Positions 7,311 through 33,082 of a stretch of DNA of 64,000 nt are shown here, piece by piece (the stretch's first letter is position 1; every line of letters starts with the position of its first letter). The DNA is taken from assembly GCA_963755915.1 (NCBI GenBank), contig CAVWLP010000002.1, positions 4,512,001-4,576,000 of the forward strand, read 5' to 3'. Made by a program: the position numbers and the translations under genes. Below the pieces are notes generated by a model. It was not told where the DNA came from and searched no databases. It worked only from the letters and a program-made list of their open reading frames with translations. The stretch comes from an uncultured Phycisphaerales bacterium. GTDB lineage: Bacteria > Planctomycetota > Phycisphaerae > Tepidisphaerales > Tepidisphaeraceae.

Positions 7311-7326
7311 GTAAGTGAATACTTAC
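7311..7326. promoter_or_regulatory. Second copy of the predicted TetR operator, upstream of the desaturase
   Basis: GTAAGT-GAAT-ACTTAC, same half-sites and spacing as 6686-6701. Confidence 0.78.
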
Positions 7327-7353
7327 GGCCTTTGGGCCGGAAAGGATGCGTCT

Positions 7354-7986
7354 ATGCTCGTTTCACTTCTTTCGTCCGCGGCTTTGATCCTGGCGGGAAA
7401 ATGCCTTCTCAAATTTATCGCCGCGGTTTTGGTCACGGATTTTATCTCGGGGGTTTTTCACTGGTTTGAAGACGCGTATGGCCGGGAGGACTTTCCCTTC
7501 ACCGGCAAATGGATTACGCGATTGAACGTCCTGCACCATCACAACCCGCGGGCCTTCGTCCACAATTCCTGGTGGCAAAGCTCGTGGGACCTGACCCTGG
7601 TGGTGGCGATCGTCGTGCTCGTCGCCTGGGCGATGGGGTGTCTGAGTTGGCCGGTGTGGGTGTTTGCCATCGTCGGGGCAAACGCGAATCAGATTCACAA
7701 GTGGACCCACCGCACGCCGCGCGAGAACGGCAGGATCATCACCGCGCTTCAGCGGCTTCATCTGGTGCAGAGCGTGCGCCATCACGCCCGGCACCATACC
7801 AACCCGAAGGACAGCAATTACTGCGTGATCACGGATTTCCTGAATCCGATCCTCGACGGCCTTCGGGTGTGGGAGGGGATCGAGTTCGTTCTGCTGCACC
7901 TGTTTGGAATGCGGCGGAGGGTTGATCCATCGGCGAAGCGGCCTGAAACGCCGATCGGTGCGGTTCATCAGATCAGCGCACCCTAA
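7354..7986 (+). CDS. CarF/TMEM189/FAD4-family membrane lipid desaturase
   Basis: His boxes DFISGVFHWFED, LHHHNP, NQIHKWTH, HHARHH, plus NYCVIT...NPILD; hydrophobic segments; AAGGA RBS before ATG 7354. Confidence 0.88.
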   Translation: MLVSLLSSAALILAGKCLLKFIAAVLVTDFISGVFHWFEDAYGREDFPFTGKWITRLNVLHHHNPRAFVHNSWWQSSWDLTLVVAIVVLVAWAMGCLSWPVWVFAIVGANANQIHKWTHRTPRENGRIITALQRLHLVQSVRHHARHHTNPKDSNYCVITDFLNPILDGLRVWEGIEFVLLHLFGMRRRVDPSAKRPETPIGAVHQISAP

Positions 7987-8037
7987 GTCGTGTTTCTCGT
8001 TTCTGGGGCATGGGAGTGCGCCACCCGGCCGAATGAA

Positions 8038-8109
8038 AATCTCACGCAGAGGCGCAAGGCGCAGAGAATCTCGGTTTTCCTCTGCGCCTCTGCGCCTCTG
8101 CGTGAGGTT
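8038..8109. repeat. REP-like palindrome, family A (intron-free copy)
   Basis: CTCACGCAGAGGCGCAAGGCGCAGAG...CTCTGCGCCTCTGCGCCTCTGCGTGAG, located between convergent genes. Confidence 0.85.
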
Positions 8110-8139
8110 CTTCAAAGCGGGCATTAGGTGCGGCCTGGT

Positions 8140-10873
8140 TCAGTGAGGCGTGTACCCCGCGATCACGCTTGTAAATTGATATTCGCCTGACCCCACCTCA
8201 AAAACGGCAGCTCCCGCTTCGAATCGTACAAACTTCACCCCCATCGCCTGCGCTGTGGGCTTCCCCCCTTCCGTCACCGATTCCGCATCGCGCGCGGGAA
8301 TATATACCATCGCCGTCGTGTTTGCCGGAACCACAACATGCATCGAAACGCTCCCAGATTTCTGCGCCCACTCACTTACAATCCGACCATAAGCGGAATC
8401 GTAATGCGCCCGCACCCATGCGAGATCGCCCAGCATCGCCGGCTTGATGATTAATTTCCTGAAGCCCGGCGCATCCGGGTCAGGCCGAATCCCCGCCAAG
8501 CCCTGGTAAAACCAACTGTCCAGCGAATTGAAGCAGGCGTGAATAAACGACGCTCCGCCGTCCCATTGCTCCGGCCACGTCGTGTCCCCTTGCTCCAGGC
8601 AATATCCCCAGCCAGGGTAACTTTTGTTGTGGACGATCGTCCACAAGAGATCGTCACGGCCGATGTCCTGGAGGTAATGAATGAGAAAATACGTGCCAGT
8701 GAGGCCGGTATCGAGATGGGCGCCGCGGGCGGCGATGCTCTGAAACAGGGTCTGCTGCACCGCAACCCGCAACTTTTCCGGCGTCACGCCCGCGACCAGC
8801 GGCATCACCAGGTACGCCTGTTTGTCGTTCAAATAACAGTTTCTCTTCGGATCGAAATAGTTTTCCTGGATTCGCGATCGCAGTGCATCGGCCTGGGCCG
8901 AAAATTCCGATGCGTCCGCCGTTCGATTCAGCCCCTTTGCCATCCAGCCAAGCTGATCGAGCAGATAGACGAGATAGCAGTTGTTAAAAAACTCAGCCTC
9001 CCGGGGTGAGGGGAAGCCCCAGAGTCCCCTGGCGTTTAACGGTCCGGGCGGAAGCCAGTCTCCCAGGCTATCTATTCCGTTCTTGGCAAAGGCGCGCAGC
9101 AGTCCATCGCTTTCATGGGACTGAAGCATCTGCACATAGCGCCGGCAGGCCAAATAATTTTCGCTGATCGCGGCGCGATCTCCGTAATAGAGATTCAGCC
9201 GCCAAGCCAGCTCCTGAAGCGCCGCGCCCCACGGCGGCCCGCCGCCCCCTTCGCCCTGCGGGGCGGTGTGCGGGATAAATCCAGTCGTCGGGTCCTGCAC
9301 GTCGCGCCAATCGGCGATCCACTTTTCGTAAAACCCGGGCATCTGGAAATTCATGATGCAACTGTCGATGGAGACCTGCCCATCGCCGCCGTAACCCAAT
9401 CGCTCCCGGTGCGGACAATCGGACATGTATCCCCCCTGGCTCAGGCAGTGCATCGTCCGCAGATCGACCTGGTGCATGCGATTGATGAGCGGGTCCGAGC
9501 ATTCAAATTCCCCCGCCTCATCCCAGGCCGCTCCTATGGCCAGCGCGGTTGCATCGCCGGGGCTGGGTGGCGAAGGCAGACCCTCCACCGTGGCGTATCT
9601 AAATCCGTGGTAGTTGAATTTGTTGGTGAACACATCTCCGTCGTCGCCGGACGAGATCAGCAAGTCGCGCTGATTGAAGACTTCATCGTCCTGGGCGCTA
9701 ACGGCTCGGTCGGAGTAATGGATGGTCACGACATGACCCGCCGGGAGGCGCGGAAGTTTCAGGCTCAGAAATCCGGTGAGATTCTCGCCGAAGTCGAAGG
9801 CGTAAAGGCCGCCACCAAGGTCTGAGCACGAAACGGCGGGAATGGTTTTGATGATCTCATCGGGCGGACCGCGCTGGGCATCGGCTTCGACCGGCGGGCT
9901 GGCGACTTCCTTTGCCGCTGCCCAATCTGCATCGGAGAAATCCGGATCGCACCATTTGGGTTGGAGTGCGCGGGGAATGACAAGTTCGCCGCCAAACTGG
10001 GCAACGCTCCAGCTTCCGAGGATCGCGCGACCGCTGGCAGCGCATCGCCAGCTCGAATCGGTGCCAATCGTGATCGGTTTGCCGTCGACGCTGAGATCAA
10101 GCTGCAACCGCGCGATCGGCCCGTCATTCACAACCCCGCGGCGCCCCGGCCAATACCAGCCGCGGCTGAGCCAGAGGCCGATGCAATTCGGGCCTCTATG
10201 CAAATAATTTTTGACGTTATAGGTTAGGTAGAGCGAGCGCTTGGAATAATCGGTCACGCCGGGGCTGATGACATCCGCGCCAACTTTTTGCCCATTCACA
10301 TAAAGTTCGTACCACCCCATGACATTCACGCGCGCGATGGCCGAATCCAGGTCGCCGTCGAGATCAAAATCCCGCCGAATCTGAGGCTCGTTGCAGAACC
10401 CCGGGGGACTTGCGGGCAAATTCGCCATGATCCATCGGGCGTGCCAATCCGCGGGCTCTAGGAGCCCCATCTGCCAGACGGCCGGCGCGCTCCAATCAGA
10501 GACGTTCCCCTTCTGATCCCAGATGCGCACCCTCCATTGGTACGTCTGTGCCGAAACCAGCGGCTCGCCGCCATATTCCACGTTCACCGAGTCATCCGAC
10601 CGCACTTGTCGGCTGTCCCAGACGATTTTGTCGCCCCGGCTCACCTGGATTTGATACGCCGACTGAATCTCGCCCCGGGAATCCGACTCGATGGTCCAGC
10701 TTAGCCGCGGCCTGGGTGCATCGATCACCGGGGTTCCCGCAAGATATTCACAGCGCAGCCCCCCTACCTTCAGCGCTGCGCAGTACCGCCGGGGAGGCGA
10801 TGGCAACGAGCATGGCAAGAAGTAATTTAACGATTTCCCTGTCGTAGCCGCGGGGAGATTTCATCTCCTTCAT
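8140..10873 (-). CDS. Alpha-L-rhamnosidase, GH78 (frameshift near the signal peptide)
   Basis: LRCEY...PRLSW, DFGENLTG, FNYHGFRY, SDCPHRERLGYGGD, TTWPEQW, SAYGRIVSEW. Confidence 0.9.
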
Positions 10874-28975: not shown

Positions 28976-30115
28976 ATGTTTGAGCGGAGCAACGCGAAGG
29001 ACGGAAAGAATTCTATTGTTCGAGCCGGCCGGGTCGTCGTGGAGGGGCTGGAGGATCGGCGGCTTCTCTCGGCGGCACATGGGTTTCCCATGATGGGATT
29101 TGGCGGCGGGCCGTTTGGGGGAGGGGCGTTTGGCGGGCCACCTCCGATTGGCGGAAGTACGATTCAGTTTGACCAGGCGCCCTCCGCAGTTCAGAGCGGG
29201 CTGGATTCGCTGGCGTCCACCGACGGACTTACAGCGCCGACGACGAGCCAGACGGTCTATCTCAGCAATAACAACGGCGTGGAGGGGTATTCCATTGATT
29301 TGAGCAGCAGCGGAAAGAACACCCGGCTGACCGTGGACGCAAACGGCGATGCCGTGACGGCGCCGACGCAGTCGACCACGACGTTCGGAGCGATCACCAA
29401 CACCGCGGTGACCAGCGAAATTAGCGCGATCGCGACGGCCCTGGATCTGACGACGCCCGCTTCCACGACCAATGTCTCCGTGCTCACCAACAGCAGCGGA
29501 AGTTCAACCTACACCGTGCACCTGAGCAGCAGCAGCAGTTCCTCGCCGTGGAGCGGGAGGACCATCACCGTCGATTCCAACGGAAATCCCGTCGGCAACG
29601 AGGTCCTGCCCTTCAGCGTGCTGCCGACGGCGATTCAGAATGGGCTCATCGCCAACGCGCCCAGCGGCACATCGCTTTCCAGCAGCTCGACGCAGAATGT
29701 TAATATCACCACGCAGGACGGCGTGACGCTCTACACCATGCAGTTCAACAGCACGGGAACGCGCACGAGCGTCACCGTGAATTCCAGCGGCGATCTGACG
29801 AGCCTGCCCAGTATCACGAGCACGACCTACGCCGACGTTCTCTCGACCGCCGCCACCGAGCTTCAGACGCTGGCGACGGCGGATGGGGTCAGCACGGCGA
29901 TCGCTTCGACGCAAAAAGTGCTCGAATTCAGCGAGTCGAACGGGACGACGGTTTATTCTTTGACTCTTCAGGATTCGACCAGCAAGCCGGTGACGATTTC
30001 GGTGGATGAGGATGGAAATCCAACGGTTCCACCGACCGATGGCAGCTTCGGGCCAATCTCCGTGCTGGGAGGATTCGGCTTCGGCGGATTTGCGTTTGGA
30101 GGCCCGGCGTTCTAG
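28976..30115 (+). CDS. Planctomycete-type exported protein (LEPR-XLL-like motif) with four internal repeats
   Basis: VEGLEDRRLLSA N-terminal motif; four roughly 70-aa units ending TVDxxG-like; AAGGAG RBS. Confidence 0.8.
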   Translation: MFERSNAKDGKNSIVRAGRVVVEGLEDRRLLSAAHGFPMMGFGGGPFGGGAFGGPPPIGGSTIQFDQAPSAVQSGLDSLASTDGLTAPTTSQTVYLSNNNGVEGYSIDLSSSGKNTRLTVDANGDAVTAPTQSTTTFGAITNTAVTSEISAIATALDLTTPASTTNVSVLTNSSGSSTYTVHLSSSSSSSPWSGRTITVDSNGNPVGNEVLPFSVLPTAIQNGLIANAPSGTSLSSSSTQNVNITTQDGVTLYTMQFNSTGTRTSVTVNSSGDLTSLPSITSTTYADVLSTAATELQTLATADGVSTAIASTQKVLEFSESNGTTVYSLTLQDSTSKPVTISVDEDGNPTVPPTDGSFGPISVLGGFGFGGFAFGGPAF

Positions 30116-30131
30116 GAGAAATAATCTCACG

Positions 30132-32104
30132 GTAGAGTAGAGAACTGAACGACCCGATTGCCGCTCAGCTCTCCCTCTTCGAACCGGACGAGCGGGTTTC
30201 CCGCATCCGGCTCTCACGGTATTGTTCTTCTCAAGCATTCACGGTCGGAACAGGTCGCAGGCTGATGAGGCCCAGACGCTGCAACTGTTCGTACCAGCTC
30301 CTCGCTCCGCGCACACGGAACGGACGCTGGCTGCGACGTTTAAGGTGTCGTTCCAGTCGCTCCTGCACAAATCGGTTGATCTGACGGAACGCCTTGCGCG
30401 GATAGCCTTTGCCGAAGTAGTTGGCCCATCCTCTCAGGTGCTCGTTGATCTGTACGATCAACGCCGGGATGGGCACAAAGCCTGCTTCGGGTCCGGTCAT
30501 CTCCCGCAATTTGTCCCGCTCACGCTGCATCGACTTGCTCGAAGGACAGAGGTTCAGATAACGCCCCGGCCCGCCTTGCAGGCTCCGGTCGTACCGGAAC
30601 CTGTACCCGAGAAAGTTCAGACTTTCGCCCGGCTCTTTCAACTTCACCGTGCGGGTCTTGTCGGTGTTGATCGTCAGATCAAACCGGCCTTGCAGCGTGC
30701 GTTCCACGAACTGCTTGATCTGAGGGCCTATATACCTTGCCATGATGACAAAGTCGTCGGCGTACCGGATCAGCCGGGCGTTCGCCCAGCGATGCGGGCC
30801 ATCGGATCGGTGGAACAATTTATCAAACCAGTGCAGATATAGGTTGGCCAGCAGCGGCGAGATCACTCCGCCCTGCGGCGTTCCCTGTTTGCTCCGGGTG
30901 ACTTTCGGTGGATCGCCGGGCTTCTCGCCTTCTTCGACGATCACCGCCTTCAGCCACATCCGGATCAGCTTCAGCACGCTTCCGTCCGTGATCCGCTTCT
31001 GGACACACGCCATCAGTTTCTCATGGGGAATCGTGTCGAAGTACGACTGCAAATCCGCGTCATACACTTCCCTTCGGCCCTGCTGGAGGTTTTGCTTGAT
31101 CGCCTCCAGCGCATCGTGAGCCGAGCGACCGGGACGGAATCCATACGAACAGTCCAGGAAATCCGCCTCGAAGATCGGCTCGATGAGCAGCAGCACCGCC
31201 ATCTGCACCACGCGATCTCGGATCGTGGGGATGCCCAATGGACGCCGCTTGCCGTTGGCTTTGGGAATGTACACGCGCTTCACCGGCTGCGGGCGGTAGG
31301 TGCGGGTCTTGAGCGATTCTTCGATCTCGCTCAGGAATCCACTGACGCCGTGCTCGGAGTTTTGCACCTTCTCGATGCTCACCCCGTCCAAGCCGGGCGC
31401 CCCGCCGTTGGCGGACACCCGGTCCCACGCCGCTTCCAGAACATCGCGCCGGCAGATCCGGTCGTACAAGGTGTAAAACCGAAACCCCGGTTCCCGCTTG
31501 GCTTTGAGGTATAGCTTCTGTCTCAGAAGAAAGACTTTCCCCGGCAGACCCCTGGAGTTCACCCTCAGGTGCTCCGGCAAGTCTGTCGGATCATCCGTAC
31601 TGTCAGGTTGTCCCTGCAAGCGGGCCTCTCTTCTTCTTACTTCCGCTCGATACCGTCAGGGCTCCTTGGCTCGCGGCAGGCTTCGCCTCCGCTCACGGGC
31701 ATTACCCCGCTTCTCAGCTACTATGAGCCCATCCGACTCCCCACGCTTCCCGTCCCTTGGTTATGTCTTTCCAACGAGCCGCACAACGATGCGTGGGGTC
31801 TCTCAGTTCCCGATCTTGTCTGTCGGCACGCGCCGTCCCCATCGACCCCGAGGAGCCGGACGATTGCTCGCACCCGCTGCTTCATCGTCCGCGCCGGCTT
31901 GGCCCTCTCTGACGGGTTGGCCACTCCCATTGGCGTAACGAGGCTGGTTTGGGTTCGCTTAACGCTACGGCTCGCGCCTTCGCCTTCCGGGGCTTCGCGC
32001 GACCGATTGCTCCGTCGTCACGCCCGGGCGGCTACACGGCTAACGGGTCATTCCATGGTGAACTCCTTTCAGTTCACAAGACAAAACCGGTTTCACTGAC
32101 GCAC
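30132..32104 (-). mobile_element. Group II intron (complete)
   Basis: 5' GTGCG at 32104; domain V GAGCCGGATGCGGGAAACCCGCTCGTCCGGTTC; domain VI ending CTACTCTAC at 30132; encodes an RT. Excision restores CTCTG|CGTGAG. Confidence 0.95.
30231..31619 (-). CDS. ltrA: Group II intron reverse transcriptase/maturase (no apparent endonuclease domain)
   Basis: [42 protein letters not shown], domain X LRGWANYF. Confidence 0.95.
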
Positions 32105-32174
32105 CAGAGGCGCGAAGGCGCGGAGGGAAACAGGGATTTGGATTCTCTGCGCCTTTGCGCCTCTGCGTGAGATT
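32105..32174. repeat. REP-like palindrome, family A, interrupted by the intron (remainder at 30123-30131)
   Basis: AATCTCACG + CAGAGGCGCGAAGGCGCGGAG...CTCTGCGCCTTTGCGCCTCTGCGTGAGATT. Confidence 0.88.
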
Positions 32175-32179
32175 TCTTT

Positions 32180-33016
32180 TTATGGATTCGAATCCGGCAT
32201 TGTCGCCGGCCCGCGAGGCATGTCGGCGTGGAAGGTGAATTCGGTCCCGCCCGTCAGTTGCGTGGCTTCGCCTGGCGCCGTGGAGTATTTGCTCGAGCCC
32301 GTCTGGTCGCTCTTGACGATCATGCCGGCGGCGATGTCGACCAGCAGGGTGAGGCTGGAGCTGACGTCTTCCTCGATGTGGCCGGTCTCGTGATAGGCGG
32401 TGGCGACGGAGGCCGATATCTGTGCCATTTGCCGGCCGTTGATGGTTTTCACCCAATCGAGCCGGCCGATGGCCATCAGTTTGTCCGTTGGCCCCAGGTC
32501 GGAATGCTTGGCGACCTTGTCGCTGCAGTCGAAAGTCTGCCCGACGGCAATCGGATGGTCGGGATAGAAATCCTCGTCGGGGGTCATGAAATTGTCGAGG
32601 AGATTGGAGTCGTCGTCGCCGGCGCTGCCGCTGAAATCGTCGCTGAAGGTTTCATCGGGATGGCGCGAGAGGATGATCGCTTTTCCCGCGTAGGGGCAGG
32701 GAGTTTTCTTAATGGCGCCGCCATTGTCGGCCGAACCGTCGAAGCTGGCGGGGTCGATCTCGGCCTTGGAGCGAAGTGAAGAGCCGTTTTTCTGGTCCAG
32801 AACTGTCAGGGTGACGGTCCAATCTTCGATGGTGTCGGTGTTGAGATTCGTCTGTACGCCGCCGGTGGTGGAGTTGGTCTTCGATTTGTCGTCAGAAACG
32901 ACGTGGAACGTGCTGACCTCACCGACGTGCAGGTTTTCGTGGATGCTGTAGGTTTCGTCCGCAAAAGCCGTGGCGCAGAGAACGATTGTCAGGACGGAAA
33001 TCAGGATGGCCCGCAT
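32180..33016 (-). CDS. Hypothetical secreted beta-rich protein
   Basis: Signal peptide ending AFA; long ORF. Confidence 0.75.
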   Translation of the reverse strand: MRAILISVLTIVLCATAFADETYSIHENLHVGEVSTFHVVSDDKSKTNSTTGGVQTNLNTDTIEDWTVTLTVLDQKNGSSLRSKAEIDPASFDGSADNGGAIKKTPCPYAGKAIILSRHPDETFSDDFSGSAGDDDSNLLDNFMTPDEDFYPDHPIAVGQTFDCSDKVAKHSDLGPTDKLMAIGRLDWVKTINGRQMAQISASVATAYHETGHIEEDVSSSLTLLVDIAAGMIVKSDQTGSSKYSTAPGEATQLTGGTEFTFHADMPRGPATMPDSNP

Positions 33017-33082
33017 GACGGCGAGCATACCGGAAGCCGGTGAAAGTTTCGAGATGCAGCAAACTACAGAGCGCTGCCTGCG

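Follow-up and report, generated by a model that had tools for sequence, protein, structure and literature searches.

A putative class F-like group II intron and its palindromic targets in an uncultured Phycisphaerales bacterium

According to a review of group II introns, all lineages except class C use plain homing sites, and stem-loop targets belong to class C only (PMC4424553). For IIB introns there is no report that upstream secondary structure plays a role (PMC7923331). A group II intron of Pseudomonas putida KT2440 is linked to repetitive extragenic palindromic (REP) sequences in two of its nine copies (table in PMC1525189). Here we describe a group II intron in a 64,000-nt stretch of DNA from an uncultured Phycisphaerales soil bacterium (contig CAVWLP010000002.1, positions 4,512,001 to 4,576,000), which is called the window below. 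The intron lies at 30132-32104 on the minus strand and is very probably an active, endonuclease-less, class F-like intron that retrohomes by RNA–DNA pairing into a terminator-like palindrome present in many copies.

Class F (IIF) introns, such as Ge.ur.I1 of Geobacter uraniireducens and Pe.th.I2, share several traits with the window intron in the accessible parts of PMC3753933 and PMC3552965. These are a reverse transcriptase and maturase (RT-X) protein without endonuclease domain (En-minus), two exon-binding sites (EBS1 and EBS2), an intron-binding site IBS2 that immediately precedes IBS1, and a domain V loop of 5 nt. The ribozyme is small and IIB-like in both, with about 585 nt outside the open reading frame (ORF) in the window intron and 450-700 nt given for IIE/IIF introns (PMC3753933, accessible part). 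All positions below are window coordinates. The sample comprised the 64-kb window and the whole assembly (G000; 6.63 Mb in 3 contigs), which is of metagenome type and rated 81% complete with 8% contamination.

The intron and the palindrome that it splits

The element carried the features of a mobile group II intron: GTGCG and CTAC ends, matches to RF00029 and RF02005 above their gathering scores, and the RVT_1 and GIIM domains in its protein. The features of the intron and its exons were as follows.

30132..32104, minus strand: full-length group II intron of 1973 nt, 5' GTGCG ... CTAC 3' (boundaries as read, Rfam matches, 12 full-length copies with common ends)
30132..30215, minus strand: domain V, which carries an AGC triad and the 5-nt loop GAAAC, and domain VI (RF00029; score 53.6 bits, gathering score 40; loop read from the alignment)
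31836..32066, minus strand: core of domain I, Rfam group-II-D1D4-6 (RF02005; score 51.2 bits, gathering score 49)
30231..31619, minus strand: intron-encoded protein, 462 aa long, in which reverse transcriptase and maturase (X) domains are present and an endonuclease domain is absent (ORF and Pfam)
31907..31911, minus strand: EBS1 CAGAG in the hairpin loop GUCAGAGA, pairing with IBS1 CUCUG (Rfam structure and covariation)
31932..31936, minus strand: EBS2 candidate ACGCC in an internal loop, whose partner is GCG at -9..-7 here and GGCGU in the congener G002 (Rfam structure and covariation)
32105..32174, minus strand: 5' exon, comprising the 5' arm of the palindrome, the loop and most of the 3' arm, with IBS1 at 32105-32109 and IBS2 at 32111-32113
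30123..30131, minus strand: 3' exon CGTGAGATT, the final 9 nt of the 3' arm, with a T-rich tail next to it

The 5' boundary was fixed by covariation of EBS1 with IBS1 across relatives. On the minus strand the 5' junction at 32105/32104 joins ...CGCGCCTCTG to GTGCGTCAGTG, and the 3' junction at 30132/30131 joins ...CTCTACTCTAC to CGTGAGATT. Domain V in the Rfam alignment had a 4-bp upper helix, and its GAAAC loop was closed by a G-C pair. The 462-aa protein matched RVT_1 (1.4e-33) and GIIM (8.6e-14); at E<=0.01 Pfam gave no domain besides these two, hence no endonuclease.

The insertion point was located inside the 3' arm of a terminator-like palindrome, 9 nt before the end of the stem. When the two flanks were joined in silico, they formed a hairpin whose stem spanned about 30 bp, with a folding energy of −53.3 kcal/mol. 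An intron-free element of the same window aligned to the joined flanks in both orientations (local scores 52 and 48, about 84 positions).

about 8036..8111, either strand: intron-free palindrome copy with exact target sites at 8100/8101 (+), 8092/8093 (+) and 8046/8047 (−); fold of −62.4 kcal/mol

Both loci were found between convergent open frames, at 28976-30115 (+) and 32180-33028 (−) for the intron and at 7315-7986 (+) and 8140-10818 (−) for the empty copy. The 5' exon alone folded at −34.0 kcal/mol, with IBS1 and IBS2 within the stem and paired up to the last base.

These results agree with a preliminary description of the window. The minus-strand intron at 30132-32104 that it saw splitting a long palindrome was confirmed by the junctions, the Rfam matches and the restored stem of about 30 bp. 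The empty target that it placed near 8038-8109 is real and aligns nearly base for base with the joined flanks, and the convergent genes that it reported around both copies were borne out by the open frames on either side. Its predicted targets at 8100/8101 and 8046/8047 were exact matches, and a third was found at 8092/8093. The AGC triad and the lack of an evident endonuclease, which it had also pointed out, were recovered in the Rfam alignment and in the Pfam result (RVT_1 and GIIM only).

The product of the gene at 28976-30115 (+), which lies upstream of the 3' exon, is a repetitive protein that is rich in Ser/Thr and has Gly-Phe-rich ends.

Copies in the genome and recognition of the target

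The assembly contained 12 full-length copies of the intron, and the ORF was intact and its protein identical in all of them. Since nine copies were 100% identical, three were 99.95% identical (one base each; two share the change) and three more had decayed, the intron has copied itself recently. In one of the three broken copies an internal deletion had brought 1-1402 next to 1934-1973; the other two were a 5' stub of 118 nt and a 3' piece of 273 nt. The flanks outside the repeat were unique and unrelated at every copy. Junctions at other copies were the check proposed in the preliminary description, which had expected CGTGAG after the intron. All 14 5' junctions in the genome read GCGCCTCTG directly before the intron, and all 14 3' exons started with CG (7 CGTGAG, 5 CGCGA and 2 CGCCTC).

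The uninterrupted core GCGCCTCTGCG occurred 51 times in the genome compared with 9.4 expected from composition, and 14 more cores were split by the intron. CTCTGCG alone occurred 833 times, compared with 51 for the full 11-mer; therefore, target specificity extends at least to −9. Targets and junctions grouped by position gave 43 elements, of which 14 (about a third) were occupied, and the claim that the repeat is multicopy was thereby borne out. Eight of the 14 occupied elements kept an empty target on the other arm, and both arms were occupied in none. As the element is palindromic, each copy offers a target on both strands, and as it is intergenic, insertion breaks no coding sequence. The repeat may in this way provide a 'harmless' and 'renewable' homing site.

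A bias was observed in the unit upstream of the target. Perfect CTCTG at −13..−9 was present at 0/14 occupied and 22/51 empty sites (Fisher p=0.0014), and CTCAG in the same unit at 5/14 occupied and 1/51 empty sites. Two possible causes are that competing splice sites are avoided or that the unit makes a further contact in recognition.

The tails of the elements were T-rich, with at least 6 T in 12 nt for 22/42 tails compared with 158/5000 (3%) random 12-mers, and by their sequence the palindromes look like bidirectional terminators. A simple terminator scanner run on the empty copy reported one short 7-pair stem within the 5' arm; the loop of the hairpin of about 30 bp exceeds the length that this scanner allows. 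By a crude longest-open-frame rule, used without a gene caller, the upstream frame was co-oriented with the intron at 11/13 copies. Neither of the two Y1_Tnp genes of the genome had a copy of the motif within 1.5 kb. A REP system with its REP-associated tyrosine transposase (RAYT) was rejected for this repeat, which has no linked Y1 (RAYT) transposase; therefore, 'REP-like' is used as a description and not as a family assignment.

Of 13 public runs listed for this DNA, none is recorded as RNA. Contigs of 4 soil runs from 2 public studies were placed on 29500-32700. No contig joined across the intron, so an empty allele was not seen in these runs, whose contigs are blind to rare variants. Likewise, no contig piece bridged a junction by 31 letters. 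The contigs stopped at the intron borders and continued into the flanks of other copies, with loose ends at 30124/30126 and 32173/32175. In run X1 the mean word depth was 52.3 for the intron contigs and 3.4-3.5 for the flanks, a depth that is not a copy number.

A congener, G002, carried an intron 81% identical to the window intron, with a protein 82% identical. Its EBS1 was CCAAG in the loop GUCCAAGA, compared with CAGAG here, and its IBS1 was CTTGG, compared with CTCTG, which is a two-sided compensatory change. In G002 the internal loop ACGCC formed 5 bp with the GGCGU that immediately precedes IBS1. This intron's target was a palindrome of CGTCTTGG units. Its motif GGCGTCTTGGCG was multicopy in 4/4 congeners (26, 27, 48 and 102 copies, compared with 1-4 for the backwards-read control) and was found mostly as paired minus/plus hits, 40-110 nt apart. 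From this retargeting and the multicopy motif, the genus has at least two sister families of octamer-unit palindromes, each matched by one intron variant.

The second palindrome family, of GGCGTCTT units, was present in G000, G001, G002 and G010 (e.g. G000:C2:2501525-2501566) and its motif numbered 26-102 copies in each. The G002 intron variant targets this family, which was unoccupied in G000.

For the window intron and 22 relatives of its clade, 23 introns whose 5' ends were mapped, pairing was assessed by 2000 permutations; because the introns are mutually related, these counts make the cases look more independent than they are. Anchored at −1, the EBS1 duplex had a mean of 4.91 bp for cognate and 3.01 bp for non-cognate pairs, which was reached by 0/2000 permutations. 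For the EBS2 loop the cognate and non-cognate means were 4.35 bp and 3.81 bp, respectively, reached by 4/2000 permutations.

These data suggest that the intron enters one spot in each arm of a genus-specific palindrome made of phased 8-nt units (GCGCCTCT). EBS1 CAGAG would pair with the five bases that end the 5' exon and EBS2 ACGCC, weakly, with the GCG just upstream. The first base of the 3' exon, always C and followed by G, would guide homing together with EBS1 and EBS2. By analogy with other En-minus introns, for which priming by nascent strands at replication forks is described (PMC4424553), entry would take place through single-stranded DNA at replication forks with nascent-strand priming. 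Insertion upstream of the T-rich tail would allow read-through from the upstream gene to transcribe the intron, which probably still splices and moves.

A second D1D4-6 match of 111 bits was present outside the window at G000:C2:3596530-3596780 (L153:930-1179) and starts with GTGCGCCGGG. Neither domain V/VI nor an RT ORF was found within 3 kb downstream of it. This match is the 5' fragment of a different group II intron at an unrelated site outside the palindrome family.

Intron class and relatives in other genomes

The window RNA matched Rfam D1D4-6. D1D4-3, under which the IIC structure 4FAW of O. iheyensis is filed (PMC3965019, accessible part), had no match anywhere in G000; this structure was the only link between a D1D4 family and an intron class that the literature supplied. 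IIC introns are described as lacking EBS2 in the accessible part of PMC3753933. A short IBS1 is a further IIC trait. Against the GsI-IIC RT, the window protein scored 223.1 bits and the protein of a D1D4-3 intron from the same bacterial class 453.7 bits. The protein of the D1D4-4 intron on plasmid 1 of Nitrobacter hamburgensis scored 179.6 bits.

A quick maximum-likelihood tree was built from 105 proteins, taking all rows whose ORF reached 330 aa or more and contained a YADD or FADD motif and excluding own-genome duplicates. One row came from an unpublished genome, and class E and class D references were not included. The window protein fell in a 43-row clade (SH-aLRT, the Shimodaira–Hasegawa-like approximate likelihood ratio test, 97) inside an 86-row clade (96) with D1D4-4 introns, and the D1D4-3 rows formed a separate 10-row clade (99).

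Class C (IIC) was rejected on the D1D4-6 RNA, the covariation of EBS2, the 5-bp EBS1, the scores of 223.1 and 453.7 bits and the separate clade; judged by RNA family, exon-binding sites, protein score and tree, the intron is not of class C. The preliminary description had reached the same view, which stands by RNA family, exon-binding sites and protein, while its argument from the AGC triad is weak by itself. A CGC triad is ascribed to 'some introns' only (PMC4424553), and AGC alone therefore proves little on class. The RT phylogeny that had been proposed as a check placed the protein apart from the D1D4-3 clade, with a root that is not secure.

Provisionally, the intron may be called class F-like (IIF-like) with IIB-like RNA, because its small RNA is combined with an En-minus RT-X protein, EBS1 and EBS2 with IBS2 directly upstream of IBS1, and the 5-nt GAAAC loop of domain V. 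Such a 5-nt loop instead of a tetraloop is given as an oddity of IIE/IIF introns in the accessible part of PMC3753933. Another class F trait, alpha-prime at the end of the DId3 stem-loop, had a tentative 5-bp match by eye. The Nitrobacter plasmid-1 intron, which fell in the 86-row clade, is presumably Ni.ha.I1, class F g3 (PMC3552965).

The repeat was also studied in other genomes. The motif GCGCCTCTGCGYGA was present in 12/12 genomes of the genus with 1-85 copies, compared with 0 for the backwards-read control, and outside the genus as a single copy in 3/24 genomes. The protein of the window intron was not found at E<=1e-40 in G010 (85 motif copies) and G001 (64 copies), and several of the assemblies are incomplete. 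As far as tested, the repeat exists independently of the intron.

The scan for relatives used one genome per species and returned 80 loci. At 53-74% identity, the clade included Planctomycetota, Verrucomicrobiota, Acidobacteriota, Myxococcota, Thermodesulfobacteriota and others. Five separate 5' junctions of Chthoniobacter flavus Ellin428 all ended with ...CTCTGCG(N)CCTCTG directly before the intron, and its four 3' exons were CGGTAAAA, CGTTTAAA (twice) and CGTTTAAG. In a Terriglobia chromosome both intron copies were located in arrays of CTCTGCG units. Relatives, among them the multi-copy introns of Chthoniobacter flavus, were likewise located in arrays of phased 8-10-nt units.

The terminal pentamer, with at most 1 mismatch, recurred 6-13 nt upstream in 15/23 introns compared with 477/2800 (17%) control positions; by this strict criterion the window copy itself does not count. 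Of the 19 clade introns for which both boundaries were mapped, 7 had an inverted repeat without gaps, with 10 or more matched bases, that linked the insertion site to the 180 nt on its upstream side, compared with 0/300 control positions from the same loci. Minimum-free-energy hairpins showed no significant enrichment at these sites (7/19 compared with 43/200 controls). The palindrome or phased-unit habit is common in the clade and not universal. A wider proposal is that the whole class F-like clade, in Planctomycetota, Verrucomicrobiota, Acidobacteriota, Myxococcota and Thermodesulfobacteriota at least, is specialised on terminator-like palindromes of phased 8-10-nt units and tracks sister families by small changes in EBS1 and EBS2. 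We consider this proposal possible and slightly on the doubtful side. Under it, single-strandedness or extrusion of the palindromes may give endonuclease-less introns entry.

Three further loci were noted among the relatives. In a metagenome-assembled genome labelled Bifidobacteriaceae (L054:250-1200), two related introns stood in tandem with one 8-nt unit TGTCGTTG between them, so that neighbouring units of one array were both occupied. A 64%-identical relative in G049 (L003:1-870) had lost its 5' part to an insertion sequence with an integrase-core type transposase. A c-di-GMP-I-GGC riboswitch (69.2 bits, L049:6101-6216) was located near a related intron in a deltaproteobacterial genome and is incidental.

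Alternative explanations and comparison with known systems

The target could instead be recognised by its structure, as in class C, with the intron or its protein binding a DNA stem-loop and pairing merely setting the exact cut. Such guidance would fit an insertion point that was in the 3' arm throughout, the occupancy of the 11-mer (0/12 where it stood as a single arm, compared with 14/53 palindromic arms; Fisher p=0.055), and the inverted repeats at 7/19 clade sites, which had no counterpart in 300 controls. However, a folded hairpin would hide IBS1 and IBS2, both of which are in the stem, whereas IBS1 of class C lies outside the stem. A strict inverted repeat was lacking in 12/19 relatives, the minimum-free-energy measure did not separate sites from controls, and EBS2 is present here and lacking in IIC introns (PMC3753933, accessible part). 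Structure-guided targeting is therefore unlikely, and targeting looks like ordinary EBS/IBS pairing, in which the hairpin's own role is not separable from sequence here.

It might also be asked whether the palindromes, instead of being an independent host repeat, were left by the intron, for instance through repeated rounds of insertion and loss that duplicated exon units. Very similar units (CTCTGCGCCTCTG) beside related introns in three phyla (G000, Chthoniobacter flavus and the Terriglobia genome) and the upstream recurrence of the terminal pentamer in 15/23 introns, compared with 17% of controls, would agree with a footprint. On the other hand, congeners in which the window intron's protein was not found had up to 85 motif copies, and empty elements contained no intron sequence. 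We know of no mechanism for making such palindromes from intron insertion and loss, and we hold this origin very improbable. Duplication at the DNA level, recombination between repeats or assembly error in place of retrohoming is extremely improbable. The near identity of the copies and the metagenome-type assembly (81% complete, 8% contamination) would allow it, but the flanks beyond the repeat were unique at every copy, the junctions were base-exact and the copies had private single-base differences. Public-run contigs ended at the intron borders and continued into the flanks of other copies, and 5'-truncated and internally deleted copies are typical of retroelements.

Several observations weigh against retrohoming by a class F-like intron through pairing. 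EBS2 pairing in G000 was weak at 3 bp (GCG), and in the accessible part of PMC3753933 the EBS2–IBS2 contact was dispensable for self-splicing in two IIE/IIF introns. For these two reasons the cause of the strict GCGC at −9..−6 is ambiguous, and it may stem from the repeat, the protein or the hairpin. The predicted 5' exon hairpin (−34 kcal/mol), which buries IBS1 and IBS2, should hinder splicing and reverse splicing, and the 5' arm of the palindrome in effect competes with EBS1 and EBS2. The protein tree came from a quick search with a root that is not secure, and the provisional class F label rests on RNA traits and the grouping with the Nitrobacter plasmid intron, not on classified reference proteins. 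Cumulative and local GC skew of contigs C2 and C3, examined for the expected replication-strand bias, was mosaic and noisy, and the intron orientation matched the local skew at about half of the 14 sites. Splicing and current mobility are inferred from DNA sequence.

If pairing-based retrohoming holds, the locus would be a clean natural case of a non-C lineage living in multicopy palindromes. Retargeting within the genus (EBS1 CAGAG to CCAAG) together with many empty sites makes target choice, copy-number control and insertion cost testable. In practical terms it would offer a compact En-minus intron with a simple and readable targeting code. The clade-wide proposal, if true, would add to class C a second lineage that independently lives on stem-loops, at odds with the review (PMC4424553). 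Our literature search found no published non-C lineage specialised on multicopy palindromes.

Class F introns offer a parallel in their exons. In Ge.ur.I1-1, 5' splicing is reported to take place also 9 and 19 nt further upstream, because variants of IBS1 are repeated there (PMC3753933, accessible part), and by this description its 5' exon has a phased-unit architecture as in the window intron. The palindrome habit would account for these several phased IBS1 motifs. The accessible parts of PMC3753933 and PMC3552965 describe neither a multicopy palindromic 5' exon nor genomic targeting.

Class C introns (PMC4424553) are like the window intron in their En-minus protein, their intergenic terminator-like stem-loops and their many dispersed copies. 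They differ from it in RNA type, protein clade and EBS2, and the window intron does not follow the stem but interrupts its 3' arm, at an 11-nt sequence that is fixed. RmInt1 of Sinorhizobium meliloti (class D/IIB3, target ISRm2011-2; PMC5894124) is likewise En-minus and IIB-like, with about ten copies per genome and sequence-specific retrohoming into a repeated element. Whereas RmInt1 enters a transposase gene, the window intron enters a palindrome, about 75 nt long and non-coding, that has sites on both strands. Mobile elements that insert into REP sequences (PMC1525189) are similar in their specificity for intergenic palindromic repeats, whereas 14/14 junctions here fell at one fixed position of the repeat, which has no linked REP-associated tyrosine transposase. 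Compared with these systems, the mechanism is most likely ordinary intron biology, and what stands out is a target habit not recognised before and an unusually clear example of natural retargeting.

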